In this document: one piece after another, positions 1,270-13,476 of the stretch | Numbering within the stretch: the stretch's first letter is position 1 | Layout: every line of letters begins with the position of its first letter | Virus genome (UHGV): UHGV-0137099 | Strand: one strand, 5' to 3' | DNA length: 25,615 nt | Origin: a virus | The notes under the pieces: model-generated | Told to the model about the DNA's origin: nothing | Databases searched by the model: none | What the model saw: only the letters and a program-made list of their open reading frames with translations | Position numbers and translations under genes: made by a program

Positions 1270-1498
1270 TAAAGATAGCTCCGAAGTCTGGTTCTTCCTC
1301 CCGCACCGTCTCTTCCTGCTGGTTGCGGTATTTAATCGGGTTCAGGAAATGGCCCCACGTCGTTTTAGGATGGCCGTCTGCCCTTTCCATGAAAAAGACT
1401 CCGGCCCGGCGTAGCGCTTCACACTGCCGCGATTTAAGCGGTGTCCCCGTCAGTTCGATCATTTCCTCTCTGGTGATGATGTCGTGATCGTGTCTCAT
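1253..1498 (-). CDS. xis: Excisionase-like small DNA-binding protein (putative Xis)
   Basis: 81-aa ORF directly upstream of int, overlapping the int start by 17 nt (classic xis-int arrangement); start preceded by GAGGAAAGACC. Product assigned by position and size only. Confidence 0.55.
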   Translation of the reverse strand: MRHDHDIITREEMIELTGTPLKSRQCEALRRAGVFFMERADGHPKTTWGHFLNPIKYRNQQEETVREEEPDFGAIFNGRKA

Positions 1499-1654
1499 GG
1501 TCTTTCCTCAGCATGCCGGCTATCGCGTTGTCTGCCGTATCGCAAGCGCGTTGGATATCGGACTGGGTCAGAGTCCTCTTTCTAACGCTGGCTGATAGCC
1601 TGCCAATTTTGATATCGAAATCTGAAAGTAAAAGTGTGCCTGGTTGCCAACGTA

Positions 1655-1691
1655 GCATTGTGATCTCCGGTTCATAGGTAGATCACAATGC
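1655..1691. repeat. Perfect 12-bp inverted repeat (GCATTGTGATCT / AGATCACAATGC) with a 13-nt spacer
   Basis: Read directly from sequence; lies in the non-coding gap upstream of xis on the minus-strand operon. Confidence 0.7.
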
Positions 1692-1707
1692 TAACGACGG
1701 TTGCGAG

Positions 1708-1893
1708 TTATTTCTGATTAGGCTTAATCAGGTTTGGTTTATTACGGAACGCGCCATTTTCGCGGGTGATTTTGGCACTGCGCGGGAAATGCATAGCCAG
1801 TTCACAACGCGCGCAGGCTTCGATTATCCCGTTAGTACCGTCCGGAAAAACGACGTGAAGCGCGTCGCCTCGTTTCAGTGTGAGTTTCAGCAT
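1708..1893 (-). CDS. Hypothetical small protein (61 aa, from the internal ATG of the 73-aa track ORF)
   Basis: ATG at 1893 lies 2 nt after the stop of the upstream gene (TGAtATG coupling); same strand as the operon. No recognisable motif. Confidence 0.4.
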   Translation of the reverse strand: MLKLTLKRGDALHVVFPDGTNGIIEACARCELAMHFPRSAKITRENGAFRNKPNLIKPNQK

Positions 1894-1894
1894 A

Positions 1895-2461
1895 TCAGCG
1901 CACCTGCAGTGAACGTTCGCCAATCTCAAGGTGAGCGCCCGGCACTGGGTTTAACAGTTCTTCCGGTATCTCTCCGCCGTCAGCGCTAATCTGGGCCGCT
2001 GCTGCCTGTGCTGATTCAATCGCTTCCTTGATGGCTTTCTTGTCCGGAGTGACTAACGTCTGAACTGTCACTAATTCATCCGGCAGTAATTCATCGTTAT
2101 CGATCACGACGTTTATAGCCCCCTTGCGTGCGGTAAAAGTATTTTTGGCGGTTTTAACCGTATCCTGACCGGCGGCCAGAAGGCACTGGAGAACATACTT
2201 CTTCAGGTTAGCGATCTTGCCTTCGAATGATTTTTTTCGGGCGGCGAGGCGTTTGGCCTCTTCATCGCAGGTTTTCGCCAGACCTTCCAGATTGCGAACG
2301 TGGACGAATACGGCATCCAGTTTATCGCCGAGTTGTAACTCGAGACCTTCCATTGTGTCGGCGATCATTTCCGGAGACAGACCAGAACCATCTTCATTTT
2401 CCAGAAGCGCCTGGAGTTTTGACATATCGGCAGCGATAGCAATAGCAGTAGTGGAAGTCAT
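1895..2461 (-). CDS. Hypothetical coiled-coil protein of the recombination module (possibly Gp157-like)
   Basis: 188 aa, acidic, helix-rich; start ATG overlaps the stop of the upstream annealase gene by 1 nt. Family assignment is by position next to an annealase only. Confidence 0.5.
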   Translation of the reverse strand: MTSTTAIAIAADMSKLQALLENEDGSGLSPEMIADTMEGLELQLGDKLDAVFVHVRNLEGLAKTCDEEAKRLAARKKSFEGKIANLKKYVLQCLLAAGQDTVKTAKNTFTARKGAINVVIDNDELLPDELVTVQTLVTPDKKAIKEAIESAQAAAAQISADGGEIPEELLNPVPGAHLEIGERSLQVR

Positions 2462-4611
2462 TATGCTTTCTCCTCGGCTTTATTCAGTTCCTTAATACGG
2501 CCATCCTTAATGGTGATGAGTCGGCGGAGTCGGCCAGACAGATAGCGTTCATGCTGCGTATCGCCGTTGGCCTGGGCGGCTTTAATGTGTACATCGATCT
2601 CACGTGCAATAGGGGAAAATACGCCATTGATTTCGTTCACCGTCACGCCATGCGCCAGGGTATTCGCAACGCGGCTTAATTTGTCGTCAAACTCCTGGCG
2701 AAGCCGTGCTGCATCTTCGGCTGATTCGCTGGCATTCTTCAGGTCAAACTCGGCCTTATTCTTCTGGCGGTACTCCAGATTGTCGTAAAGCCCCATAAAG
2801 ATATCGCCGCTGAATCCGAGGCCGGATAACGCTTTTTTGGTCGCATCAGTCAGTGATTTCTTGGCTGCTTCGCCGTCGCAGGTGATCCCATATTTACTGC
2901 CGTAGATGTAGGGTGTACAGCCGTATGCTGTTTCCTCACCTCGTACGCCGTTCAGGATGTACCAGAGCCGGACAGTCACAACATGGTGCTGTTCGTTGAC
3001 GGTATTACCATTCCCATCAAGAACCAGCTCCCACGATGCGTTGTTGTCTTTTCCTTTTACCTGGCGAGAGATCGGCGCGCCAATATCGAAACGCTCTTCA
3101 ACAATATCCACGCCCCAGCCGATACCCTTAGGGCCAAACTCACGGGTGGCGAGCATGGTCATGTAGGTACCGTTGATCGAGGTGCCACCGCCGTTCTGTG
3201 TGAAAGCCTTAGTAAACCTTTCGTCGGTTTTAAATACGCGTTTCCAGAGGTCTAAATTGTCTTCCCCGATGATTGGTTTTCCGACAGCCTGCACAACATC
3301 CTCAGCGTTAGGCAGGCTTTCAGCGTGAGCGATTTGTTTTGCTAAACGCTCGGAATCATCAGCCAGTTTTTCAGCCTTAACGCTTAACTTCTCTTCCGGC
3401 TCTGCACCTTCACCAGAGGCATATACGCCATAACCCATATCATTGAGCGTCTCACGCGCCTGTTTGGCCTGGGTGTCGGTTACAACCGGCTGCGGCGCTT
3501 CCACTTTTTCGCCCACGTTTGAGGCGGTATTTTGCGTCGCCTCTGGTTGTTTAACGGATCCTGTCTCGGTTTCCTCAAAGCGGCCGTTGGCCGCCAGCCA
3601 TGAATCGATATGGCGGCGCAGGCTGTCAGGGAAATGGTAGGTATCTTTCGCCGGTACGTTTTGTACCACGCCGAAGATGCTGGCGCGGTCGTATTTGAGT
3701 ATCTGCGGCGTGGTGTGCAGCGATGCTGACCAGCGTTTAAAATCTTCCCGGTCATCGGAAATCATCTTCTTAGCGTCCAGAAGGTTTCCGGATAGTACCG
3801 GCGCATCAGGCGCCAGCGGGAGAAGGGCGGTAGCGATCTCCTGATCCAGCGTTGCATAAGTGTGTTTATACCCGCGCTTAGAAATTACCACTGGCGTTTT
3901 ATCATCGGTGCTGGTGCTGAGAGCGGTATTTTTATATACGCCAGGGGCCAGTTCGTCGCGTTTGCCCGGATTCTCAAGCCAGCTTTTAACGAACTGAGAG
4001 ATAGCCGCTTTACCCGGCGTCTGGTTTTCAAAGTGGGAGAAAATACCCTGAATAAGATTGTTCAGACCTTCCACATGCATGCTTTGAATCGGGAAGTTAT
4101 TTTGCAGGGCGCACAGCACGTTAAAGTTGAAGCGGTCTTCTTCTTCAAATTCCCCATCGTGGTTTTTCAGGTTATCCAGATAATCCACAACCTGAGAATA
4201 AAGATGGCCATCAATCGCCGCGGTGCTAAAAAGCAGGACGGCAGCAAAGCGTTCTTCAGCGGAAACGGTCATAAGGTCGATCACTTCATCGTCGGCAGGT
4301 AAACCAGCACTACTTCCGGAAGCGCTATCCTGCACAGTAGAAATCCATTTTTCACCGTCAAAAGTATGCTGCTGGGCGAATGACTCATCGAACTGGCCAA
4401 CGGTAGGCAGCGGCTGGCCTTCAATGTGTTCCCACAGTTTCGGTTTGAAATAGTTGTCACCATTGGCCGGGTATGATTCCCAGAGTTTGCCGGTCATAAT
4501 GCTTTCGGCCACTTTTTTGTTTGGCGCATCGATTGCGATCGTCAGCTGAACGGCGCCGCAGTCTTTAATCGCCGATTTCTTTGGCTCAAATAAGCCGTTG
4601 TAGATGGTCAT
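2461..4611 (-). CDS. Rad52-family single-strand annealing protein with a ~450-aa N-terminal extension of unknown function
   Basis: C-terminal region FGPKGIGWG ... AYGCTPYIYGSKYG ... AAKKSLTDATKKALSGLGFSG resembles the Rad52 annealing core (FGYNGW ... KARKEAVTDGLKRALRSFG). Start chosen at ATG 4611 (MTIYNGLF...), which is directly preceded by GAGGAAAGACCA; the track's longer start at 4644 lacks this. Confidence 0.75.
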   Translation of the reverse strand: MTIYNGLFEPKKSAIKDCGAVQLTIAIDAPNKKVAESIMTGKLWESYPANGDNYFKPKLWEHIEGQPLPTVGQFDESFAQQHTFDGEKWISTVQDSASGSSAGLPADDEVIDLMTVSAEERFAAVLLFSTAAIDGHLYSQVVDYLDNLKNHDGEFEEEDRFNFNVLCALQNNFPIQSMHVEGLNNLIQGIFSHFENQTPGKAAISQFVKSWLENPGKRDELAPGVYKNTALSTSTDDKTPVVISKRGYKHTYATLDQEIATALLPLAPDAPVLSGNLLDAKKMISDDREDFKRWSASLHTTPQILKYDRASIFGVVQNVPAKDTYHFPDSLRRHIDSWLAANGRFEETETGSVKQPEATQNTASNVGEKVEAPQPVVTDTQAKQARETLNDMGYGVYASGEGAEPEEKLSVKAEKLADDSERLAKQIAHAESLPNAEDVVQAVGKPIIGEDNLDLWKRVFKTDERFTKAFTQNGGGTSINGTYMTMLATREFGPKGIGWGVDIVEERFDIGAPISRQVKGKDNNASWELVLDGNGNTVNEQHHVVTVRLWYILNGVRGEETAYGCTPYIYGSKYGITCDGEAAKKSLTDATKKALSGLGFSGDIFMGLYDNLEYRQKNKAEFDLKNASESAEDAARLRQEFDDKLSRVANTLAHGVTVNEINGVFSPIAREIDVHIKAAQANGDTQHERYLSGRLRRLITIKDGRIKELNKAEEKA

Positions 4612-4655
4612 TGGTCTTTCCTCTTGGTTTCTGGCGCAGGTCACGCGCCGGTTAA

Positions 4656-4979
4656 TTAAAACGGTACGTCGCTTTCTTCAATCGGAGAGTGATCGATGCA
4701 CAGCAGCTGCTGAATCTGGTCTTCAATAACACCCAGCTCCTTCTTAGCTTCGGCAGAGATTTTCTCTTTCTTCGCGCGAAGGGCATTAACCTGCATACCA
4801 ATAATGTCGATTGGTTCTAAAGCCGGGATGGCAACCTCTACCGTTTTGGTAGTAACGAGGACATACAGATCAGGGTATTGCTGTGACATGTCACAGGTGA
4901 ATGAGTGATAAGACGTTGGTAGATATGGGTTCGTTGTGGCCATAACGTAAACAGTTACGGGGATGGTAAGCGCTTCCAT
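4656..4979 (-). CDS. Hypothetical protein (107 aa)
   Basis: ORF on the operon strand with a strong SD (AAGGAG, 6-nt spacing) before ATG 4979. An alternative layout is an upstream 47-aa ORF from 5035 coupled to an internal ATG at 4889 (see findings). Confidence 0.5.
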   Translation of the reverse strand: MEALTIPVTVYVMATTNPYLPTSYHSFTCDMSQQYPDLYVLVTTKTVEVAIPALEPIDIIGMQVNALRAKKEKISAEAKKELGVIEDQIQQLLCIDHSPIEESDVPF

Positions 4980-5035
4980 AGCGACTCCTTGTTGATGTAT
5001 ACTCAGAGCCGATCAGTGTTGACTCTGTCGGCATT

Positions 5036-5427
5036 GGTCTTTCCTCATCACAAGCTTGGTCGCTTGTGATAAGTCCGAATGGTTTGGTCACCGTTCGGGG
5101 TAACTGGCCCGCCTTGTGCGGGCCTTTTGCCATCTAAAGGTTGCCGGTCTTTCCCGGCTGTCAGGGCTGGTCACGCCCGTTGGTCATTGGTCTTTCCTCC
5201 CGGTCTTTCCCGGCGCCAGAGCTGGTCAGGCTCGCTGGTCTTTCCTCACAGGCTCCCTCTTTTCGAGGGCTTCAGTTTTCACTGAACGGTCGCATAAATC
5301 TTTACTGTGTTAAAAAAATGCCCGGGGCGCCCGGGCCAAGACTACACACAGCAATTCGTATTCGTTGCGGTCTTTCCCGCATGTCATCGTACTGTCGGCG
5401 ACCCGAAGAATTCGTGCCCGTCTTTCC
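5036..5427. repeat. Array of at least 7 copies of the core GGTCTTTCC (minus-strand sense GGAAAGACC), several extended to CGGTCTTTCCCGG...CTGTCAG/GCTGGTC units
   Basis: Copies at 5036, 5146, 5189, 5202, 5237, 5369 and a degenerate one at 5419; the same core precedes start codons at 1499 and 4613. Confidence 0.8.
5312..5336 (-). terminator. Rho-independent terminator for leftward transcription
   Basis: GC hairpin GCCCGG-GGCGC-CCGGGC; on the minus strand it is followed by ATTTTTTT. Confidence 0.6.
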
Positions 5428-5581
5428 GGACTGTCAGAACTGTTTCTGAACAACTGCCGCGTGGTTAGTGCGTCGTTGATGTGATGTAATTTAGGTAAAT
5501 CTAACAAATTGGTCAATGATTAAATTAGAAAAAACGAACAATATGAGCGTAAAAAAATACATCTATCTGATTAGAAAGGGA

Positions 5582-5968
5582 TTATTTTTGTTTGCGGGCT
5601 TGCAGTAACTCTTCAAATAAACGATTGAAACCGTCTACTTTTTCGCGAAGTTCCGTTAAATGCCGCTCTTTTTCAGATTCAGGGAGTGACGAAAAGAGTT
5701 TTAAAAGCTCTGTTTCTCGTTCATCTAACGGCGGCGGGGTGTCTACCGGGGTTCCCGGAGTGGCGGCTTCATCGCCGTAAAGTATCCAGGTAGGGCTGCA
5801 TTGAAGTGCGTTACTTAAAGCGAATAGGTTTTTCCCGCCAGGCTCACTATCACCGGTCTCCCACTGGGAGATAGTGACGTGCGCGACGTTAACCAGCTTC
5901 GCTAAAGCGCGCTGAGTAAGTTTGAGATCTTTTCTACGCGCTCTGATGCGCTCACCTGGCATTGTCAT
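5582..5968 (-). CDS. Phage repressor, short XRE-family HTH protein without a LexA-like peptidase domain
   Basis: 128 aa; N-terminal HTH (LKLTQRALAKLVNVAHVTISQWETG); divergent from a Cro-like gene; no SD upstream of the ATG, so possibly leaderless like lambda cI from pRM. Confidence 0.8.
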   Translation of the reverse strand: MTMPGERIRARRKDLKLTQRALAKLVNVAHVTISQWETGDSEPGGKNLFALSNALQCSPTWILYGDEAATPGTPVDTPPPLDERETELLKLFSSLPESEKERHLTELREKVDGFNRLFEELLQARKQK

Positions 5969-5970
5969 AG

Positions 5971-6025
5971 TTAGATAATTCTAAATTTCCTTGACTTCGT
6001 TATCTCGAACACCTAATTTGTTAGG
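5971..6025. promoter_or_regulatory. Immunity-region operators and a rightward sigma70-like promoter (pR-like)
   Basis: Palindromes TTAGATAATTCTAA (5971-5984) and CCTAATTTGTTAGG (6012-6025); -35 TTGACT (5991-5996), 17-bp spacer, -10 TAATTT (6014-6019); SD CAGGAGGG before the cro-like ATG at 6049. Confidence 0.55.
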
Positions 6026-6048
6026 AAAATCTAACAGGAGGGTGTTTC

Positions 6049-6243
6049 ATGTTAACAACTGATGCGATCAAATATTTTGGTAGTAAGAGAAAACTGGCTG
6101 AGGCCGCTGGCGTTAAGGCTCCTACTGTCTATGCGTGGGGGCGTTTGGTTCCTGAAGGTAAAGCGGCTCGTTTGTCTCTGATGACTGATGGCGAACTTGT
6201 TTATGACCCAAAGGCTTACCAACTGCCAGCCAAATCAGCTTAA
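6049..6243 (+). CDS. cro: Cro-like repressor (P22 Cro family)
   Basis: 64 aa; IKYFGSKRKLAEAAGVKAPTVYAWGRLVPEGKAARLSLMTDGELVY parallels P22 Cro IDHFGTQRAVAKALGISDAAVSQWKEVIPEKDAYRLEIVTAGALKY (recalled from memory); divergent from the repressor. Confidence 0.8.
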   Translation: MLTTDAIKYFGSKRKLAEAAGVKAPTVYAWGRLVPEGKAARLSLMTDGELVYDPKAYQLPAKSA

Positions 6244-6305
6244 CAATTGGCGGCATCGAAATCTGATTACGCTTAATCAATTTTCAGCGACAGGAGACGC
6301 TCGAA

Positions 6306-6752
6306 GTGGAATACCTCGAAGAACTTAAACGAGAGATCTTTAACTGGGCAGCGGAAAGCGGGCAGGAGCTGGTTGCTATCGAGATAAGCCGCATGTGGTT
6401 TCGTCTTGGTGGTAATACCGGTTCGCTGAAGCTGCACCAGATCGAAGATGCAGATGGAAACGCCGACTGGCGGGCAATCAACAACAACCGCCAACAAATT
6501 TTTCGTTGGTTGAGAGGCGAGACCAAAGCCGCGAGAGCCAAAACTCTGGCGCTGGTCAAAGCGATGGAAGCGGCGCTGCCGGCAGAGCGTTACGCTCGCT
6601 TGGGTATGTCCACCCAGTATTTAATTTGTGTGGCCATTCGTGAGTTTGCCGCGGCGATTATCGCGTTGTTACTCGACGCCAGAGACGGGCCGCAGCAAGT
6701 CGCCAGAGCATTGCAAGCTATGCGAGAAACACAGCGCCTGACCAGCGTTTAA
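6306..6752 (+). CDS. Early regulatory protein, possibly CII-like / YdaT-family
   Basis: 148 aa with GTG start and AGGAG SD; sits where cII lies in lambdoid phages (right after cro). Family call is tentative. Confidence 0.45.
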   Translation: MEYLEELKREIFNWAAESGQELVAIEISRMWFRLGGNTGSLKLHQIEDADGNADWRAINNNRQQIFRWLRGETKAARAKTLALVKAMEAALPAERYARLGMSTQYLICVAIREFAAAIIALLLDARDGPQQVARALQAMRETQRLTSV

Positions 6753-6772
6753 CCTGTACCGAGGAAAGACCA

Positions 6773-6994
6773 ATGAGAACACAAGACCGCATCACCTGGC
6801 GGAACGGGTTTCGCCGGAACGGGGTACAAGTCCCGATAGAAGATATCGAATCGATTTTCGAGGAACGTCGCGCTACTGCGCTGACAATCTGGGAACGCTA
6901 TGAACTGCGTAAGGCAGACCTACAGGAAGCGGGACTCACCCAGAAAGAATACGAAATCGCCTGCCGCCAGCTGGCTGACTCGCTGGGGATTTGA
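6773..6994 (+). CDS. Hypothetical protein (73 aa)
   Basis: Start preceded by the conserved GAGGAAAGACCAATG module and an upstream GC hairpin. Confidence 0.5.
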   Translation: MRTQDRITWRNGFRRNGVQVPIEDIESIFEERRATALTIWERYELRKADLQEAGLTQKEYEIACRQLADSLGI

Positions 6995-6996
6995 CT

Positions 6997-7980
6997 ATGA
7001 GTATGACGCTTATGGCCAAAGCAATGGCAATCAAGACCGGAAACCCGATTCGAAAACTGGTGCTGATCAAACTGGCTGATAACGCCAATGATTACGGCGA
7101 ATGCTGGCCGTCTTACAAACATATTGCGGATCACTGCGAGTGCAGCAAAAGCGCGGTGCGTGACCATATCGATGCGTTAATTTCTATGGGCCTGCTGGTG
7201 AAAGAAAATCGCCCGGGCGTAAAAAACGGGAAGGGTAACGCGTCGAATTTGTACTGTATGAAACTTGATAACCCTATGCCGCCAAAAAGCATAGCCCCTA
7301 TGCCGTCAGAAAGCACAGGTATGCCGCCAAAAAGCATAGCCCCTATGCCGTGTGGCGGCACCAGAACCAGTCACTCTTTTGAACCAGTCATAGAACCTAA
7401 AGATCCCCCTAACCCCCAGACGGGGGAAGGCGATGAAAAAATTAATTCTGATGCTAAAAAAGCGCTGGATTTTTACAACGAGCAAACCGGTACCCGCTGC
7501 CGTGACCTGAAACCTTTTGTGATGATGCTGACGCCGACCACCACCCGGGAAGGTTACACCCTGGACGAATTGCAGTTAGTTATCCGCTGGGTGCTGGCCA
7601 CATGGCGCCGCCGTGGCGATAGCCTGCCGAAGCCAGCGAACATCTGCCGGGTAAACCGCTTTGATGGTTATCTTGCTGACGCTGAAGCATGGGCGGTGAC
7701 AGAAACCGATATTGATCCGGAAGCCGTTATGAACGGCTACAACGAAATTTTTGCTGACGTTCTGCCTGCTGCTGAACTGGACACCGACCGCCGCCGGATG
7801 ATCACCCGACTTGCCGCCCACATGAAAAACAAAACCACGGGCGCATTTCTGGGTTATTTCGAAAAATTCCGCGCTGACGCCTCCGATTTTTACTTTGGTG
7901 AAAATGGCGGATGGCGCGCCAGCTTTGACTATCTGATGAAACCAGAGACATTGCGTAAGACCAGGGAGGGCGCTTTATGA
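6997..7980 (+). CDS. Replication initiation protein (lambda O-like role), N-terminal winged-helix DNA-binding domain
   Basis: N-terminus IRKLVLIKLADNANDYGECWPSYKHIADHCECSKSAVRDHIDALISMGLLV looks like an HTH replication-initiator domain; contains internal iteron-like DNA repeats; directly followed by a DnaB-like helicase with ATGA overlap. Start could be TTG 6991, ATG 6997 or ATG 7003. Confidence 0.7.
   Translation: MSMTLMAKAMAIKTGNPIRKLVLIKLADNANDYGECWPSYKHIADHCECSKSAVRDHIDALISMGLLVKENRPGVKNGKGNASNLYCMKLDNPMPPKSIAPMPSESTGMPPKSIAPMPCGGTRTSHSFEPVIEPKDPPNPQTGEGDEKINSDAKKALDFYNEQTGTRCRDLKPFVMMLTPTTTREGYTLDELQLVIRWVLATWRRRGDSLPKPANICRVNRFDGYLADAEAWAVTETDIDPEAVMNGYNEIFADVLPAAELDTDRRRMITRLAAHMKNKTTGAFLGYFEKFRADASDFYFGENGGWRASFDYLMKPETLRKTREGAL
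7272..7350 (+). repeat. Iteron-like repeats inside the initiator gene (candidate origin of replication)
   Basis: 30-bp unit ATGCCGCCAAAAAGCATAGCCCCTATGCCG occurs twice (7276-7305, 7321-7350), built from alternating CTATGC / GCATAG half-sites; followed by an AT-rich stretch around 7430-7480. Confidence 0.55.
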
Positions 7981-9383
7981 TGCAGATGATGTATTCCACT
8001 CAGGAACTGGAATGTCTGGTTCTTGGCTGCCTGATGAACGGTGGCGCCACGCCAGACGCCTTTGATGTGATTGCCAGCACTCCGAGCGAAGCTTTCAGCG
8101 TCGCATACTACAGGCAGATTTACGGTGTGATCAAAGCGCAGGCCTTGAGCGGCGGCTTAATTGACATGATGTACATTAGCGAAGCCATTGGCGGACAGGG
8201 GACGCTGGCCAATCTCGCCGATATTTGCAAATTCCCGACATCGATCGTCAATCTCAAAGGCTACGCCAAAAAAATGGTTAAGGCCTGGCGAAGCAGAACC
8301 ATCGCGCAATTACTCCAGGATGGTGCGGATGGTATTCGTGATGCGATAAACCAGGAACAGCGCGATCAGGTTGTCGAAACTGCCGTTGCGCAGCTGCTGG
8401 ACATGACCGGCGACACTGGCGACGTGCAGCCGGTACATATCAGCGAATTATTGCCGGTGTACATGGAAACCATTCAGAAGCGCATGGACGGTGAAGAGGG
8501 TACCCGCAACCTGAAAACCGGGATCGACGAGCTGGATGAAGTCACTGGAGGTTTTAACCCACAGGATTTGATTGTTGTCGGTGCACGCCCGGGTATGGGA
8601 AAAACCGAGCTTGCGCTGAAGATTGTCGATGGTGTTACCGCTGCCGGCGGTGGAGTGTTGATATTCAGCATGGAAATGGCCGCTGCGCAAATCTTAGAAC
8701 GCTCTCTGGCGGGTTCTGGCAACATGTCAGTGTCACGCCTGCGTAATCCCCTCGATATGCAGGACGAGGACTGGGCGCGCTTTACAGCGGCCATGGAGAC
8801 CATGAACGGGCGCGATATCTGGATCGTTGATGCTACCGATCTGACGATTGAGCAAATCCGCGCCGTTGCCGAAACGCATAAGCGCCGGTATCCGCATCTG
8901 GCGATGATCGTTGTCGATTACCTTGGCCTGATTAAAAAACCGAAGGCAGAGCGTAACGACCTCGCGATCGCCCACATATCCCGAAACCTTAAAACTATGG
9001 CTATGCGCCTGCATACGCCGACTTTCGCGCTTAGCCAGCTTTCCCGCGCTGTGGATTCCCGCCCAGCGGCCCAGCGCCGCCCGGTCATGTCAGATCTGCG
9101 CGATTCAGGTTCTATTGAGCAGGACGCCGACAGCATCATGTTTCTGTATCGCGATGAGGTTTACAACCCGGAAAGCCCGGCGGCTGGCGTCGCTGAAATT
9201 ATCCTGGGTAAAAGCCGCTTCAGCGCCGCAGGCGCAATTATTTATCAGGAATTTAAAAACGGACACTTTCTGTCTATGGATCAGCATGTTGGCAAAGAGA
9301 AAACACGTATCCAACTGGAGGCCGCGAAACCCCGGAAACAACCCCGTAAATACTCTGAGAAATTCAATACCGATGCATTTTAA
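7977..9383 (+). CDS. Replicative DNA helicase, DnaB family
   Basis: 468 aa; Walker A GARPGMGKT, Walker B-like IVVDYLGL, helicase C-terminal motifs (SQLSRAVDSR, SDLRDSGSIEQDAD). Confidence 0.93.
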   Translation: MMQMMYSTQELECLVLGCLMNGGATPDAFDVIASTPSEAFSVAYYRQIYGVIKAQALSGGLIDMMYISEAIGGQGTLANLADICKFPTSIVNLKGYAKKMVKAWRSRTIAQLLQDGADGIRDAINQEQRDQVVETAVAQLLDMTGDTGDVQPVHISELLPVYMETIQKRMDGEEGTRNLKTGIDELDEVTGGFNPQDLIVVGARPGMGKTELALKIVDGVTAAGGGVLIFSMEMAAAQILERSLAGSGNMSVSRLRNPLDMQDEDWARFTAAMETMNGRDIWIVDATDLTIEQIRAVAETHKRRYPHLAMIVVDYLGLIKKPKAERNDLAIAHISRNLKTMAMRLHTPTFALSQLSRAVDSRPAAQRRPVMSDLRDSGSIEQDADSIMFLYRDEVYNPESPAAGVAEIILGKSRFSAAGAIIYQEFKNGHFLSMDQHVGKEKTRIQLEAAKPRKQPRKYSEKFNTDAF

Positions 9384-9421
9384 CCGCGCCTGACCAGCGC
9401 GATTTAACAGAGGAAAGACCA

Positions 9422-10090
9422 ATGACCACGAATTTAAATTACCCAAAACCAGTAAAACCGGATGATGGCTGCAACTGGCTCCCCGTTATTCTCTGGCGCA
9501 TGAACGCCGGCGCGCGCGCCCGTAGCCGTTCCGTGTTCGTTGCGGCGCCACGTCCGGCACCTGTACCCGGCATCACCCCGCAAAAACCGATTAAACGTGA
9601 AATTATCGCCCCTACGGTTTCCGGTCGCAGGCGAAAAACCCACATCGGCACTGTGATTTATTCCAGAGGTGAAAAAAACGTTCGCCTGAGTGAAGGTGCT
9701 ACCGTCTGGTCTGCTGGCTCTAATGAGCATTTCGATAAAAAAACGGGCCGGCGCGTTGGCAGTATTGGCCGTCACCGTCTGGTGCTTGAGAGTATTCGCC
9801 CATTGCGGGCCAGCGACGAACAGCAGGACGCCGGGAGCATCACCGCGCAGCAACTGGTATCCGTGATGAAAGGCAAAACGCTTTCTTACCAGGGCATTCT
9901 AGCATTAATCCAGAAGCACTACCCAGATTGTCAGGTGACGATTAAAGAACTTCACGATCGCGTGTTCGGCATGTTCATGTCGAATTACGTGGGTATCACC
10001 CGTCACGACGATATGCCGGTGGTTCACTTCACGCTTAACAGCGTCGATCCCCGTTATTACATCGAGTCAGCGAAGAACAAGAGGGCATAA
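9422..10090 (+). CDS. Hypothetical protein (222 aa, basic N-terminal half)
   Basis: ORF preceded by GC hairpin CGCGCCTGACCAGCGCG and AGGAAAGACCAATG; no recognisable motif. Confidence 0.55.
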   Translation: MTTNLNYPKPVKPDDGCNWLPVILWRMNAGARARSRSVFVAAPRPAPVPGITPQKPIKREIIAPTVSGRRRKTHIGTVIYSRGEKNVRLSEGATVWSAGSNEHFDKKTGRRVGSIGRHRLVLESIRPLRASDEQQDAGSITAQQLVSVMKGKTLSYQGILALIQKHYPDCQVTIKELHDRVFGMFMSNYVGITRHDDMPVVHFTLNSVDPRYYIESAKNKRA

Positions 10091-10093
10091 GGC

Positions 10094-10327
10094 ATGGCCG
10101 GGCAATCAGATTACTTGCCGCCCGGCTTACCGCTCAATCGCGCCAAATGGCCGCAGGAGTGCCAGATCAAAGAGCACTACGACATGCGCGCCTCGGCACT
10201 CATACGCCAGCTGTTCGAGAAGAAAGTTACTCGACAGGCCATCGTAGAACAGATTGCAGCGACGCCGGAAAGCTACCGGGAGTTTTTCAAAGAGAGATTG
10301 AATTTTTGGCGGGAGAAGCGGACATGA
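10094..10327 (+). CDS. Hypothetical protein (77 aa)
   Basis: Tightly packed ORF 4 nt after the previous stop. Confidence 0.45.
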   Translation: MAGQSDYLPPGLPLNRAKWPQECQIKEHYDMRASALIRQLFEKKVTRQAIVEQIAATPESYREFFKERLNFWREKRT

Positions 10328-10494
10328 AATTTTCAACACCTGATTTTATGCATTGCAGCCGCAGGACGCTGATGCTGTTCGTACTCAGTGCAAATGTTGT
10401 TGGCTGGATAGTCATTATCGCTCTTATTTGGGCTGGATGTGAGGTTGTGCAGTGGGCGCTGGAATATCTCCGCAGTAGTGGGGTGCTGGCGTGA
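10324..10494 (+). CDS. Small predicted membrane protein (56 aa)
   Basis: ATG overlaps the upstream stop (ATGA); hydrophobic core LMLFVLSANVVGWIVIIALIWAG; its stop overlaps the next start (GTGA). The track's longer start at 10147 would overlap the upstream gene. Confidence 0.4.
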   Translation: MKFSTPDFMHCSRRTLMLFVLSANVVGWIVIIALIWAGCEVVQWALEYLRSSGVLA

Positions 10495-11081
10495 ATAACA
10501 AATACACCTTGATTTATGCGGATCCGCCCTGGACGTACCGCGATAAAGCCAAAGATGGCGAGCGTGGCGCCGGGCATAAATACCAGACCATGACTGTGCT
10601 CGATATCTGCCGTCTCCCGGTCTGGGAACTGGCCGCTGAAAACTGCCTGCTGGCTATGTGGTGGGTGCCGACTCAGCCGCTGGAGGCGTTGCGAGTAGTC
10701 GAGGCGTGGGGCTTCCGTCTGATGACCATGAAAGGCTTTACGTGGAACAAATGCTACAGCCGGCAGACCGACAAACTGGCCCTCGGAATGGGCCATATGA
10801 CCAGAGCGAACAGCGAGGATTGCCTTTTCGCTGTGCAGGGGAAATTACCCGCCCGGCTGGATGCCGGGATCGTTCAGTCATTCGTGGCCCCGCGTCTGGA
10901 GCATTCGCGCAAACCGGATATCGTGCGCGAAAAGCTGGTGCAGCTGCTGGGCGATGTACCGCGTATTGAGTTATTCGCCCGCCTGTCGTCGCATGGTTTC
11001 GACGTGTGGGGTAATCAGTGTGAATCGCCAGCGGTGACGCTGCTGCCGGGCATTGCAGAATATATCGGGGAGGTAGCATAG
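10491..11081 (+). CDS. MT-A70-family N6-adenine DNA methyltransferase
   Basis: 196 aa; catalytic DPPW motif (LIYADPPWTY) and downstream conserved blocks typical of the MT-A70 family; GTG start. Confidence 0.8.
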   Translation: MNNKYTLIYADPPWTYRDKAKDGERGAGHKYQTMTVLDICRLPVWELAAENCLLAMWWVPTQPLEALRVVEAWGFRLMTMKGFTWNKCYSRQTDKLALGMGHMTRANSEDCLFAVQGKLPARLDAGIVQSFVAPRLEHSRKPDIVREKLVQLLGDVPRIELFARLSSHGFDVWGNQCESPAVTLLPGIAEYIGEVA

Positions 11082-11264
11082 ATGGCAGATTTTAGCGCAA
11101 CCAAAAGAACCGCGTCGCTCGAAGATTGGGGCGACGCGCTGGAATTAATCGTCGAATTAAATGGTAAATCATTCGATATCACAGAAATGGAGATTGAAGC
11201 CGCTTACGAGGCATATAAGCGAGTTGATGATTTTTTTTATGACGAATGGGGTGATGATCAATGA
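11082..11264 (+). CDS. Small very acidic protein (60 aa; 17 Asp/Glu against 5 Lys/Arg)
   Basis: ORF exactly filling the gap between the two methyltransferase genes; composition counted from the translation. Confidence 0.5.
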   Translation: MADFSATKRTASLEDWGDALELIVELNGKSFDITEMEIEAAYEAYKRVDDFFYDEWGDDQ

Positions 11265-12094
11265 TTGAAAAAAAAATCAGGCATCCTGTAATCAGATATC
11301 ACGGCGGGAAATTCCGACTGGCACACTGGATTATCGAGCAGATGCCGGACCACGTCTGCTATGTCGAACCGTTCGGCGGCGCTGCTGGCGTATTGCTTCA
11401 AAAATCGCGTAGCTATTCAGAGGTGTACAACGATCTCGACGGCGAGGTGGTGAACCTGTTTCGTGTGTTGCGCGACCCTGAATTAAACCAGCGCCTGCAG
11501 GATGCCTGTTGCCTGACCCCGTATTCACGCGATGAGTTCTGTCACGCTCAGCAACCAGCCACTAACCCTATCGAACGCGCCCGCCGTATGGTGGTTCGTG
11601 CCTGTATGGGGTTCGGCTCTGCCGCAGGTATCGGCGGTCAATCCGGCTTCCGCAGCGACAGCAAACGCAAATACGCTACGGCGGCGCATCTATGGGAGCG
11701 TTACCCGGCTAATCTCGCTGTTGTCTGTCAGCGCCTTCAAGGAGTCATCATCGAGAACAAAGACGCTCTGGCGGTAATGCGCGCCCACGACGCAGAAACG
11801 ACGCTGCATTACATCGATCCGCCATATATGCCGGAAACACGAGTGCAGAAAAATCGTTATTACAACCATGAAATGACCGTTGAAGGGCATGAGCAATTGC
11901 TCGCTGTGTCCAGAACGATGAAAGGCATGGTGATGATTAGCGGTTACGACACTGATGTCTACAACGACATGCTATCCGGCTGGGCGAAGACCGAGAAAGC
12001 ATCGCGCATCAGTGCCGGTCGCGGTATGAAAGTCCGTACTGAATGCCTCTGGCTTAACCCTGCAGCACAACAGAAACAGGAGCGTGCAGCATGA
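11261..12094 (+). CDS. Dam-like (D12 class) N6-adenine DNA methyltransferase
   Basis: 277 aa; SAM-binding motif EPFGGAAGV and catalytic DPPY (HYIDPPYM). Confidence 0.88.
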   Translation: MIEKKIRHPVIRYHGGKFRLAHWIIEQMPDHVCYVEPFGGAAGVLLQKSRSYSEVYNDLDGEVVNLFRVLRDPELNQRLQDACCLTPYSRDEFCHAQQPATNPIERARRMVVRACMGFGSAAGIGGQSGFRSDSKRKYATAAHLWERYPANLAVVCQRLQGVIIENKDALAVMRAHDAETTLHYIDPPYMPETRVQKNRYYNHEMTVEGHEQLLAVSRTMKGMVMISGYDTDVYNDMLSGWAKTEKASRISAGRGMKVRTECLWLNPAAQQKQERAA

Positions 12095-12127
12095 CAAAAT
12101 GCTGTAAGTGCTGCGAGAAGGTGATTT

Positions 12128-12466
12128 ATGGCTAAGTCATCCGCAGAACGTAAAGCCGCGCAGAGGGCGCGGCAATCTGCCGCCGGCAACCGGAAAATTG
12201 AGCTGGTTCTCGATGCGCAGGAAATGGACATGCTGGCGCGTAACTGCGCCGCCCGGCGCCCGGGCCGTGAACCGTACGAACTGGCCGAGTACATAGCTAT
12301 GCTGATCCGTCAGGATGATGTGCGGCTTAGTGGCCACATCAAATCGATCAGCAAACGCCTGTGTGGAAAGTGCGGTGAGTCGCTGCCGATCACCTCCTGC
12401 CCGTGTGCTGGTGATTCGCAATGCTGGGTAACGCGCGGGTGGCACGAAACTAAGCTGACAGTGTGA
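12128..12466 (+). CDS. Hypothetical protein with C-terminal Cys cluster (CGKCGESLPITSCPCAGDSQC)
   Basis: 112-aa ORF; possible small zinc-binding protein; no family recognised. Confidence 0.45.
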   Translation: MAKSSAERKAAQRARQSAAGNRKIELVLDAQEMDMLARNCAARRPGREPYELAEYIAMLIRQDDVRLSGHIKSISKRLCGKCGESLPITSCPCAGDSQCWVTRGWHETKLTV

Positions 12467-12541
12467 GGAGTAATCATTTTTTATGAAGCCTTATATGTTC
12501 TTGATAAAAGATGTGATTTATCAATTTATGCCCTTAAAAAT

Positions 12542-12570
12542 TTGCGATCACTACTCGTTGGTAGTATATA
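12542..12570 (+). promoter_or_regulatory. Sigma70-like promoter inside an AT-rich moron
   Basis: -35 TTGCGA (12542-12547), 17-bp spacer, -10 TATATA (12565-12570); followed by palindrome ACTGTGAATTTATACAGT and SD GGAGAGG. Confidence 0.45.
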
Positions 12571-12609
12571 TACTGTGAATTTATACAGTATTATTGTTGA
12601 GGAGAGGTA

Positions 12610-12801
12610 GTGGTTGATAAGAAAGACGCAGGAGACCTTCTCCCCGACAATGGTGATGTACTGATTACTTGTGAAAATGGGAAGATTAAGAAGACCAGAA
12701 TTGTCCATCCCGATGAGCACGTAGCGACACTTAACGCGTTGTTTGAATTAGCTAAATTGACTGGTTATACCATTATCAAACCAGACGGCAATATGCTATA
12801 A
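12610..12801 (+). CDS. Hypothetical small protein (63 aa) in an AT-rich moron
   Basis: GTG start after SD GGAGAGG; local GC clearly lower than its neighbours; own promoter-like sequence upstream. Confidence 0.4.
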   Translation: MVDKKDAGDLLPDNGDVLITCENGKIKKTRIVHPDEHVATLNALFELAKLTGYTIIKPDGNML

Positions 12802-12869
12802 TTACACCGTTGGCCTGAACACCCAACACCATGTAATTCTGAACAATTGCTGCGCTAAAGGGGATCCCA

Positions 12870-13466
12870 ATGGCGCAGTATTCTTTTGTAAAAGCACCCG
12901 GCGGTGTATTAATTCCGGCAACGCCTGACGCCCGCGATTTTTTAGAAAAAAAAGTCCGCCTGGGCGGTATTTTGTATGCAGATTTTAAGCAGGCAAGAAA
13001 CCCGGCATTTCACCGTAAATTTTTTGCCCTCCTGAATCTTGGATTTGATTACTGGCAACCTTCCGGCGGTGCAATATTGCCAGCTGATAAAAAACTGGTT
13101 CGTGGTTATGTGCAACTGGTAGCCCACTATGCCGGGCATGCAGACACGTTGCAGGAACTGGCGGATCAGTACCTCCGCGATGAGGCAGAAAAACGCGCAG
13201 GGAATATCAGCGCTGTTAAATCGTTTGAAGCATTCCGTTCCTGGGTAACTATCGAAGCTGGTTTTTATACCGAATACCAGATGCCTGATGGCACCACCCG
13301 CAAAGAACCCAAATCCATATCGTTCGCAAAAATGGACGATGTAGAATTCTCCCAGCTGTATAAATCCGTATTAGACGTCCTCTGGAATTTTATTCTATTC
13401 CGCACCTTCCCCAATCAGCAGGCAGCGGAAAACGCAGCCTCTCAGCTTTTCAGTTATGCGGCCTGA
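12870..13466 (+). CDS. Hypothetical phage protein (198 aa)
   Basis: Long clean ORF with SD AAAGGGGA upstream; no catalytic motif recognised. Confidence 0.6.
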   Translation: MAQYSFVKAPGGVLIPATPDARDFLEKKVRLGGILYADFKQARNPAFHRKFFALLNLGFDYWQPSGGAILPADKKLVRGYVQLVAHYAGHADTLQELADQYLRDEAEKRAGNISAVKSFEAFRSWVTIEAGFYTEYQMPDGTTRKEPKSISFAKMDDVEFSQLYKSVLDVLWNFILFRTFPNQQAAENAASQLFSYAA

Positions 13467-13476
13467 GGCGGACACT

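Follow-up and report, generated by a model that had tools for sequence, protein, structure and literature searches.

The window analysed here, 25,615 nucleotides (nt) of the virus genome UHGV-0137099, carries a cluster of inverted repeats within the coding sequence of a replication initiator gene, and this raises two questions: are the repeats the initiator-binding sites of a replication origin, and if so, where would the DNA be opened? The original prediction, made from the sequence alone, had likened the locus to phage lambda, in which iterons and an AT-rich region lie together inside the initiator gene. At a probability of roughly 0.85, we consider the repeats to be initiator sites of an origin inside the initiator gene, in a P22-like module of a Klebsiella prophage. 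Judged by its layout, this is the ordinary lambda/P22-style design, found in an uncharacterised initiator family. Thousands of Klebsiella, E. coli, Salmonella, Vibrio, and Pseudomonas prophages, Stx2-converting phages among them, encode members of this family under the bare annotation 'helix-turn-helix domain-containing protein'. The unexpected part, not flagged in the original prediction, is an invariant island of GAACCAGTCA repeats next to the last iteron, which is common to hundreds of related phages.

Dyad repeats within the initiator gene

The initiator gene (6997–7980, + strand) encodes 327 amino acids, arranged as an HTH_36 N-domain, a linker that would encode the origin, a middle region, and a P22-gp18-like C-terminus. 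The start was set at the ATG at 6997 and not at the TTG at 6991 because the family-conserved start is MSMxLM. HTH_36 (PF13730) matches residues 18–67 with 46.3 bits (Pfam gathering cut-off 25; E = 3.6e-12), within a predicted origin-binding winged-helix domain (residues 1–92; 6997–7272, + strand) that was delimited by alignment and by the covariation of its helix and wing with iteron type. Three PHROG families named 'replication initiation (O-like)' also match the protein (428, 391, and 8540). The last 91 residues (237–327) share 39% identity with the C-terminus of P22 gp18 (BLASTP over 93 amino acids, E = 4e-18), and the middle region of about 100 amino acids is weakly Phg_2220_C-like. NCBIfam holds no model for the initiator, and a PDB sequence search with it gave no meaningful match. 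The best 120 close homologues listed are all near-identical Klebsiella proteins and are precomputed as PF13730, the closest being Klebsiella 'helix-turn-helix domain-containing proteins' with 93–99% identity. Because the closest initiator homologues are Klebsiella proteins, the window most probably is a Klebsiella prophage; an integrase-like match lies close to its left end.

A repeat search identified an exact 32-nt direct repeat, TATGCCGCCAAAAAGCATAGCCCCTATGCCGT, at 7275–7306 and 7320–7351 (spacing 45 nt) with a 63% copy in between, and Tandem Repeats Finder independently reported 7272–7350 with a period of 24 and 3.4 copies. The duplication with 45-nt periodicity and the alternating CTATGC and GCATAG half-sites of the original prediction are thus both present. 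Read directly, the array consists of four dyad-symmetric units of 21 nt, starting at 7274, 7298, 7319, and 7343 (spacing 24/21/24 nt): CTATGC-CGCCAAAAA-GCATAG (iteron 1, 7274–7294), CTATGC-CGTCAGAAA-GCACAG (iteron 2, 7298–7318), GTATGC-CGCCAAAAA-GCATAG (iteron 3, 7319–7339), and CTATGC-CGTGTGGCG-GCACCA (iteron 4, 7343–7363). The first three units follow (C/G)TATGC-N9-GCA(T/C)AG. Iteron 4, which adjoins the island, keeps the left arm and has GCACCA as its right arm, together with a perfect inner dyad TGCCG-N5-CGGCA. A 20-mer iteron pattern with up to three mismatches matched three times in the window, always at this array, while dinucleotide-preserving shuffles gave a mean of 0.04 matches and none of 100 shuffles reached three. 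Neither the pattern scan nor Tandem Repeats Finder detected another iteron-like cluster within the window.

The iterons encode residues 93–122, between the HTH_36 domain and the C-terminal regions, and the peptide MPPKSIAPMP occurs twice in the product (residues 94–103 and 109–118), as had been predicted. The number of iterons is polymorphic in steps of the 45-nt module: the close Klebsiella relatives P0013 and P0027 encode 342 instead of 327 amino acids, have one extra module (PMPPESTGMPPKSIA), and thereby six iterons instead of four. This parallels the difference between Stx phages (six) and lambda (four) (PMC7466680).

Iteron types and recognition helices among relatives

We compared two sets of related loci. 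The viral set comprises 120 loci from viral contigs scanned with a 28-mer of the island, and the genomic set comprises 80 loci fetched by conserved N-domain peptides, so as not to select on the island (Enterobacterales, Aeromonas, Vibrio, Pseudomonas, Haemophilus, Marinomonas, and others). The linker always carries three to seven dyad repeats, the last of which adjoins the island. Among the viral loci, the 130 nt 5' of the island exist in 73 distinct versions with at least seven unrelated repeat types, i.e., TATGCCG..AAAGCATAG, TATGCCAyCwGATGGCA, GTGCAGGAGATTCAC, GTGAAAAATCTGCAC, GTGTAAAAATTACAC, GGGGCAGGAGCTGCCCC, and TGTAGGCCCAGAAAGCAC. The phasing is uniform: in 72 of 76 loci of the genomic set, the best self-match offset of the linker DNA is 24 or 21 nt, corresponding to seven to eight codons or roughly two turns of the helix. 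Perfect 5-nt inverted pairs are four-fold enriched in the linker (5.98 per 100 nt) over control coding DNA of the same genes (1.47 per 100 nt).

Variation in the repeats is matched by variation in the protein. In the alignment, residues 1–48 of the N-domain are nearly invariant family-wide and residues 49–90, the predicted recognition helix and wing, are variable, with each iteron type paired with its own motif in this part: CECSKSAVR with TGCC..GGCA, CEISKRSVMNHI with GTGCAG..CTGCAC, CEIDRSTVRKHI with TGTAGGC, and CEIGRSTVKNHI with GGGGCAG..CTGCCCC. The sequence of the linker peptide is not conserved at all between iteron types. Clustered at 50% identity, the C-terminal domains give 12 groups, and these occur in free combination with the N types, as in a relative (L056) that has SfV-type repeats and a window-type C-domain. 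Within loci of the window's own iteron type, nucleotide identity is 84–99% in the iterons and 92–100% in the island, and thus above the coding DNA of the N-domain (76–94%) and the C-domain (77–87%). Taken together, covariation, phasing, and conservation are properties expected of initiator-binding sites and would not be expected of a merely repetitive peptide. A linker that doubles as the origin would explain why the linker peptide is both repetitive and hypervariable, and the combination of recognition helix and iterons would provide a simple rule for locating origins and for predicting replication specificity and incompatibility groups.

A family member was also found on a plasmid, the 28-kb circular paNv_CH13 of Arsenophonus nasoniae (L210, 3782–4561), where it lies beside parM and parR and near a gene that may encode a helicase loader and carries only the annotation 'ATP-binding protein'. 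After its GGTGACAAAAACGACA iterons come GAATCAGTCA, GAACCAGTCA, and GAACC, set in AT-rich spacers. Because this plasmid has the same layout, the design of iterons plus GAAYCAGTCA repeats extends to an episome. Plasmid records carrying the N-domain number only 28 and are mostly phage-sized, and as a group they give weak support.

The invariant island and candidate sites of opening

The island, AGAACCAGTCACTCTTTTGAACCAGTCATAGAACCT, spans 36 nt (7363–7398, + strand) and contains GAACCAGTCA repeats at 7364 and 7381 and GAACC at 7393; the family consensus is AGAACCAGTCACTCTTTTGAACCAGTCAATGAACCA. When the initiator gene was used as a Megablast query, hundreds of phages and 833 of 5426 complete E. 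coli genomes matched only 37 nt of it (7361–7397), with 97% identity. In pairwise comparisons of the gammaproteobacterial genomic set, codons for the same amino acid were identical in 89% of cases in the island vs. 42% in N-domain codons 1–48, and the constraint on the island must therefore act on nucleotides. The element is built from direct repeats of GAAYCAGTCA at offsets 0, +17, +29, and sometimes +41. The density of GAACC is 3.53 per 100 nt in the island vs. 0.09 in the rest of the gene. The 10-mer is read in two frame phases, encoding Arg-Thr-Ser in the first copy and Glu-Pro-Val in later copies. Two to four copies at a spacing of 12–17 nt were found in phages of Enterobacterales, Pseudomonas, Vibrio, Aeromonas, and Haemophilus and in the Arsenophonus plasmid. 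More distant members keep the repeats with different spacers, including Pseudomonas phage MD8 with four GAACC at 11–12 nt, and phage mEp044, which like the Arsenophonus plasmid has the 10-mers in AT-rich spacers. Literature searches for the island sequence or its peptide, and for iterons of HTH_36 initiators, found no description. As a 28-nt marker, the island finds this origin family directly in DNA.

Two other explanations for the conservation of the island were considered and rejected. A programmed −1 frameshift at TCT TTT GAA, with UGA in the −1 frame and a truncated DNA-binding protein as the product, does not account for the family in general: some members lack the T-run (CTCTTGAA or TCTTCTGAA in those of Pseudomonas and Aeromonas), a canonical slippery heptamer is missing, and the 10-mer repeats reach well past the T-run. 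Antisense open reading frames (ORFs) over the island (7131–7361 and 7306–7485, − strand) were dismissed since their flanks are not conserved.

The mechanism that we infer, covering protein binding, the site of DNA opening, helicase recruitment, and origin activity, would run as follows. Dimers of the winged-helix N-domain would bind the four dyad units (7274–7363) that encode the linker of their own protein. As the spacing of 24/21/24 nt is close to two helical turns, the bound dimers would sit on one face of the DNA and could build a complex resembling the lambda O-some. This complex would strain the flanking DNA, so that the duplex opens beside iteron 4, most likely at the GAACCAGTCA island (7363–7398), possibly assisted in this phage by an AT-rich patch further downstream. 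The P22-gp18-like C-terminus would then recruit the phage helicase encoded directly downstream, and transcription from the cro-side early promoter would cross the origin, as in lambda.

Which DNA is opened is the less certain part of this scheme. The island is a candidate opening or helicase-entry element, at somewhat less than even odds. A more specific proposal is put forward only tentatively: the GAAYCAGTCA repeats may form a second family-wide class of origin repeats, a sequence-specific strand-opening or helicase-entry element that replaces the AT-rich unwinding element of lambda and P22 and serves also as a recombination joint, at which origin specificity is shuffled among helicase-recruitment modules. 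In that case, recognition of the repeats would fall to the invariant half of the N-domain, to initiator on single-stranded DNA, or to a conserved host factor. Either way, the island raises the question of how one fixed DNA element could serve initiators with different iterons and different helicase partners.

The original prediction had assigned the role of the 40-bp A+T-rich region of lambda to an AT-rich segment downstream of the repeats. This segment is indeed present (7432–7479), starting 80 nt past the second repeat copy. Its 40-nt G+C content falls to 0.25 against a window mean of 0.53, which is the minimum of the gene and within the lowest 0.44% of 40-mers in the window, and no other duplex near the iterons is as unstable as its weakest 30-mer (dG −32.0 kcal/mol, top 0.2% of the window). 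The AT-richness is retained in the closest relatives (L001 and L025). However, the patch does not adjoin the iterons: about 70 nt lie between, holding the island, which ends 35 nt before the patch, and a G/C palindrome. Its composition is moreover lost in relatives of the same architecture, with 40-nt G+C minima of 0.33 (L014), 0.38 (L031, L034, and L124), 0.40 (L056), and 0.42 (L125), and this loss makes a role as unwinding element doubtful. Identity within the patch is no higher than in the flanking coding DNA, and the middle domain begins here with the conserved AKKALxFYNE, whose Lys, Asn, Phe, and Tyr codons lower the G+C content by themselves. On family average, G+C relative to the gene is raised by 0.04 to 0.12 in the iterons and lowered by 0.14 in the island, which is the only consistent family-wide dip adjoining the iterons; nothing consistent follows downstream. 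The comparison strongly supports the lambda-like iteron arrangement of the original prediction, with iterons inside an O-like gene, a helicase gene downstream, and dyads that covary with the recognition helix in relatives, but it does not support the AT-rich stretch as unwinding partner. We regard the patch as a rather doubtful unwinding element and as a possible helper in this phage rather than a defining part of the origin. A third easily melting candidate is the moderately AT-rich left flank of the iterons (7233–7272), which encodes the wing strand GNASNLYCMKLDN; its least stable 30-mer (7242–7271) has a dG of −34.3 (top 1.4% of the window), and in the family as a whole, G+C drops by about 0.09 between −150 and −135 relative to the island. 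The island could also be kept mainly as a joint for homologous recombination, at which N-domain and iterons are exchanged among C-terminal and helicase modules, with no direct role in initiation. The Megablast matches to mosaic relatives stop at 7397/7398, Klebsiella phages sharing only 6998–7397 and one E. coli prophage only 7398–7967, and because of this break the island does mark a mosaic joint. The 12 C-terminal clusters combined with N types and the L056 hybrid fit this picture, and the length of the island, 28–37 nt, is near the minimal homology needed for recombination. Recombination alone, however, leaves unexplained the excess of synonymous identity from Enterobacterales to Pseudomonas, Vibrio, Aeromonas, and Haemophilus, and a core that consists of a 10-mer in two to four copies, in two frame phases and with variable spacers, resembles a recognition motif and not generic homology. 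We consider a purely recombinational island rather unlikely, and a joint and a role in initiation do not exclude each other.

Concerning the iterons themselves, they might bind the initiator for copy control or autoregulation, through titration, handcuffing, or a transcriptional roadblock, with the true origin elsewhere in the prophage. Plasmid iterons have such dual roles (PMC5043065), but the same arrangement is the origin in lambda and P22 (PMC8022706), the window has no second iteron-like cluster, and on the Arsenophonus plasmid the layout recurs next to the partition genes, which makes this explanation improbable. We consider it even less probable, and indeed barely tenable, that the repeats are a Pro-rich peptide linker (PMPPKSIAPMP) arisen by slippage, or an mRNA structure, without function at the DNA level. 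The linker is of low complexity, its copy number varies among close relatives, and the RNA of the origin region folds better than shuffled sequences (z = −3.96), as would be the case for any dyad array; Rfam gave no match at the initiator/origin locus. Set against this are the four-fold excess of dyads, the period of 21 or 24 nt, repeats that switch with the recognition helix while the peptide is unconserved between types, and a nucleotide conservation above that of the flanking domains.

The interpretation as an origin, which we prefer, also faces a number of adverse observations. Physical linkage alone would give some association between N-domain type and adjacent repeats. No DnaA box (up to one mismatch) was found between 5678 and 8595 and no site matching the integration host factor (IHF) consensus at the origin, the counts of both over the window being at chance level. 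With 43% G+C and a least stable 30-mer in the top 7.6% of the window, the island is unlike a classical AT-rich unwinding element. The N-domain has no detectable sequence similarity to those of lambda O and P22 gp18, and when the family N-domain alignment was compared with lambda O by hhalign, no match was obtained (probability 3.7%); remote homology to lambda O is taken from the published HHpred matches of lambda O to HTH_36 and Phg_2220_C (PMC5509034). An AlphaFold2 model of the initiator, computed from an alignment of the window protein with six close homologues at 93–99% identity, was poor (mean predicted local distance difference test score 40, predicted template modelling score 0.24), so that the fold and a disordered linker are only suggested by it; at this low confidence, the N-domain shows the order helix-helix-helix-helix-strand-strand, and residues 89–144 have no secondary-structure elements. 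Finally, our literature searches found no experimental origin mapping for any HTH_36-family member.

Known origins and the surrounding early region

The closest parallel to this module is phage P22. In both, the initiator gene is followed by the helicase gene, and the annotated rep_origin of P22 lies within gene 18, where some four dyad repeats in the linker are followed by a palindrome CCCCCTnACCCCC-N4-GGGGGA as here. Read directly, the P22 origin consists of TTTACCnnATCGGTAAA repeats, an AT-rich segment, and ACCCCCTTACCCCCTAAAGGGGGA. The two modules differ in the N-domain, which is Phage_rep_O (PF04492) in P22 gp18 and HTH_36 in the window protein, and in the iterons, which are unrelated in sequence. 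They also differ in the DNA directly past the iterons, which is strongly AT-rich in P22 whereas the GAACCAGTCA island takes this place here, and in the additional middle region of the window initiator. PF04492 matches lambda O (E = 6e-36) and P22 gp18 (E = 7e-38), whereas the window protein matches only HTH_36. The last P22 iteron (L209, 1900–1925) ends in GAATCAGTCA, which equals the 10-mer of the island unit in the HTH_36 family and lies at the same border between iteron and adjoining segment; this may be a coincidence or an element common to both initiator families.

The G/C palindrome of the window, CCCCCTAACCCCC-AGAC-GGGGGA (7405–7427), is of the P22-type C5/G5 and encodes PPNPQTGE. It is 91% conserved in relatives whose flanks are 76–80% identical, and its counterpart CCCCCTTACCCCC-TAAA-GGGGGA lies inside the annotated P22 rep_origin. 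Many different C-terminal modules begin with variants of the peptide (such as TPLTPKGE and PLPPTGE), and such variants are also encoded in the annotated P22 origin. A PxxG peptide motif and a DNA hairpin are indistinguishable at this position, since the codons for Pro and Gly are complementary to each other.

Lambda, for which four iterons are annotated inside O, likewise has four dyad sites in the interdomain linker, in an early-right operon downstream of cro and cII, and an N-terminal domain that sets origin specificity. Its ori comprises four dyad iterons of 18–19 bp and a 40-bp A+T-rich region, and O opens the latter past the iterons by a mechanism that has been reviewed (PMC5043065, PMC7466680). 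In contrast to the window module with its own helicase, lambda P hijacks host DnaB, and the conserved element adjoining the iterons is AT-rich in lambda, unlike the island. The initiators lambda O, P22 18, and L 18 differ in the iterons that they bind, and in each case these lie inside the initiator's own gene (PMC8022706). The iterons of lambda and P22 are unrelated, yet the segment right past the last iteron is nearly identical in both, with ACACAAAAGACA followed by TA(T)TACAAAAGA. Variable iterons with a conserved abutting segment are thus already the pattern of PF04492 initiators, and the island is the positional counterpart of this segment in the HTH_36 family.

Iteron plasmids (RK2, F, R6K, and P1) also combine phased initiator sites with an adjacent opening region that carries short direct repeats, as proposed here, and Rep proteins bind the 13-mers of the plasmid unwinding element as single strands (PMC5043065; PMC4081077). 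By analogy, the GAACCAGTCA repeats could play the role of these 13-mers. Plasmid iterons are, however, direct repeats that are bound by monomers and lie outside the rep gene together with DnaA boxes, whereas those of the window are dyads inside the gene with no DnaA boxes. The DopC/DnaT-type O-like proteins resemble the family described here in having an HTH_36 N-domain and exchangeable C-terminal modules; domesticated dopC lacks iterons (PMC5509034), whereas all phage members examined have them. One Klebsiella phage relative (L002) has a C-terminus with a weak DnaT domain, and the next gene downstream carries only the label 'replication protein'.

Downstream of the initiator, a gene for a DnaB-type replicative helicase (7977–9383, + strand) was identified by Pfam DnaB_C (E = 1e-72) and a DnaB N-terminal domain; its product is 46% identical to P22 gp12 over the full length (E = 6e-140). 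Its start overlaps the initiator stop as ATGA (7977–7980), exactly as in P22 genes 18 and 12, which suggests translational coupling of initiator and helicase. On the 5' side, the initiator is preceded by a cI-like repressor gene (− strand), a P22-Cro-like gene, a cII/YdaT-like gene, and a small ORF, and it sits in a cI/cro/cII-like early-right operon. A promoter and terminator scan of 5400–8200 remained at chance level; a terminator-like hairpin lies on the − strand at 7480–7463.

The small ORF between the cII-like gene and the initiator (6773–6994) encodes a conserved protein of 73 amino acids that belongs to PHROG 2465, a family of unknown function. The label 'adenylate cyclase' that it carries in OM816834 appears to be a misannotation. 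The records OM816834.1 and OM816835.1 (Stenotrophomonas phages vB_SmeS_BUCT708 and BUCT709) are 85–90% identical to the early region of the window (1495–13468), and either their host label is doubtful or the phages have an unusual host range. Within an ORF-poor stretch of about 0.6 kb 5' of the cI-like repressor gene, an RprA-like Rfam match was noted (5310–5411, − strand) with 43.3 bits, below the gathering score of 70 (E = 0.004). The same stretch contains a 55-nt tandem repeat in two copies (5144–5257).

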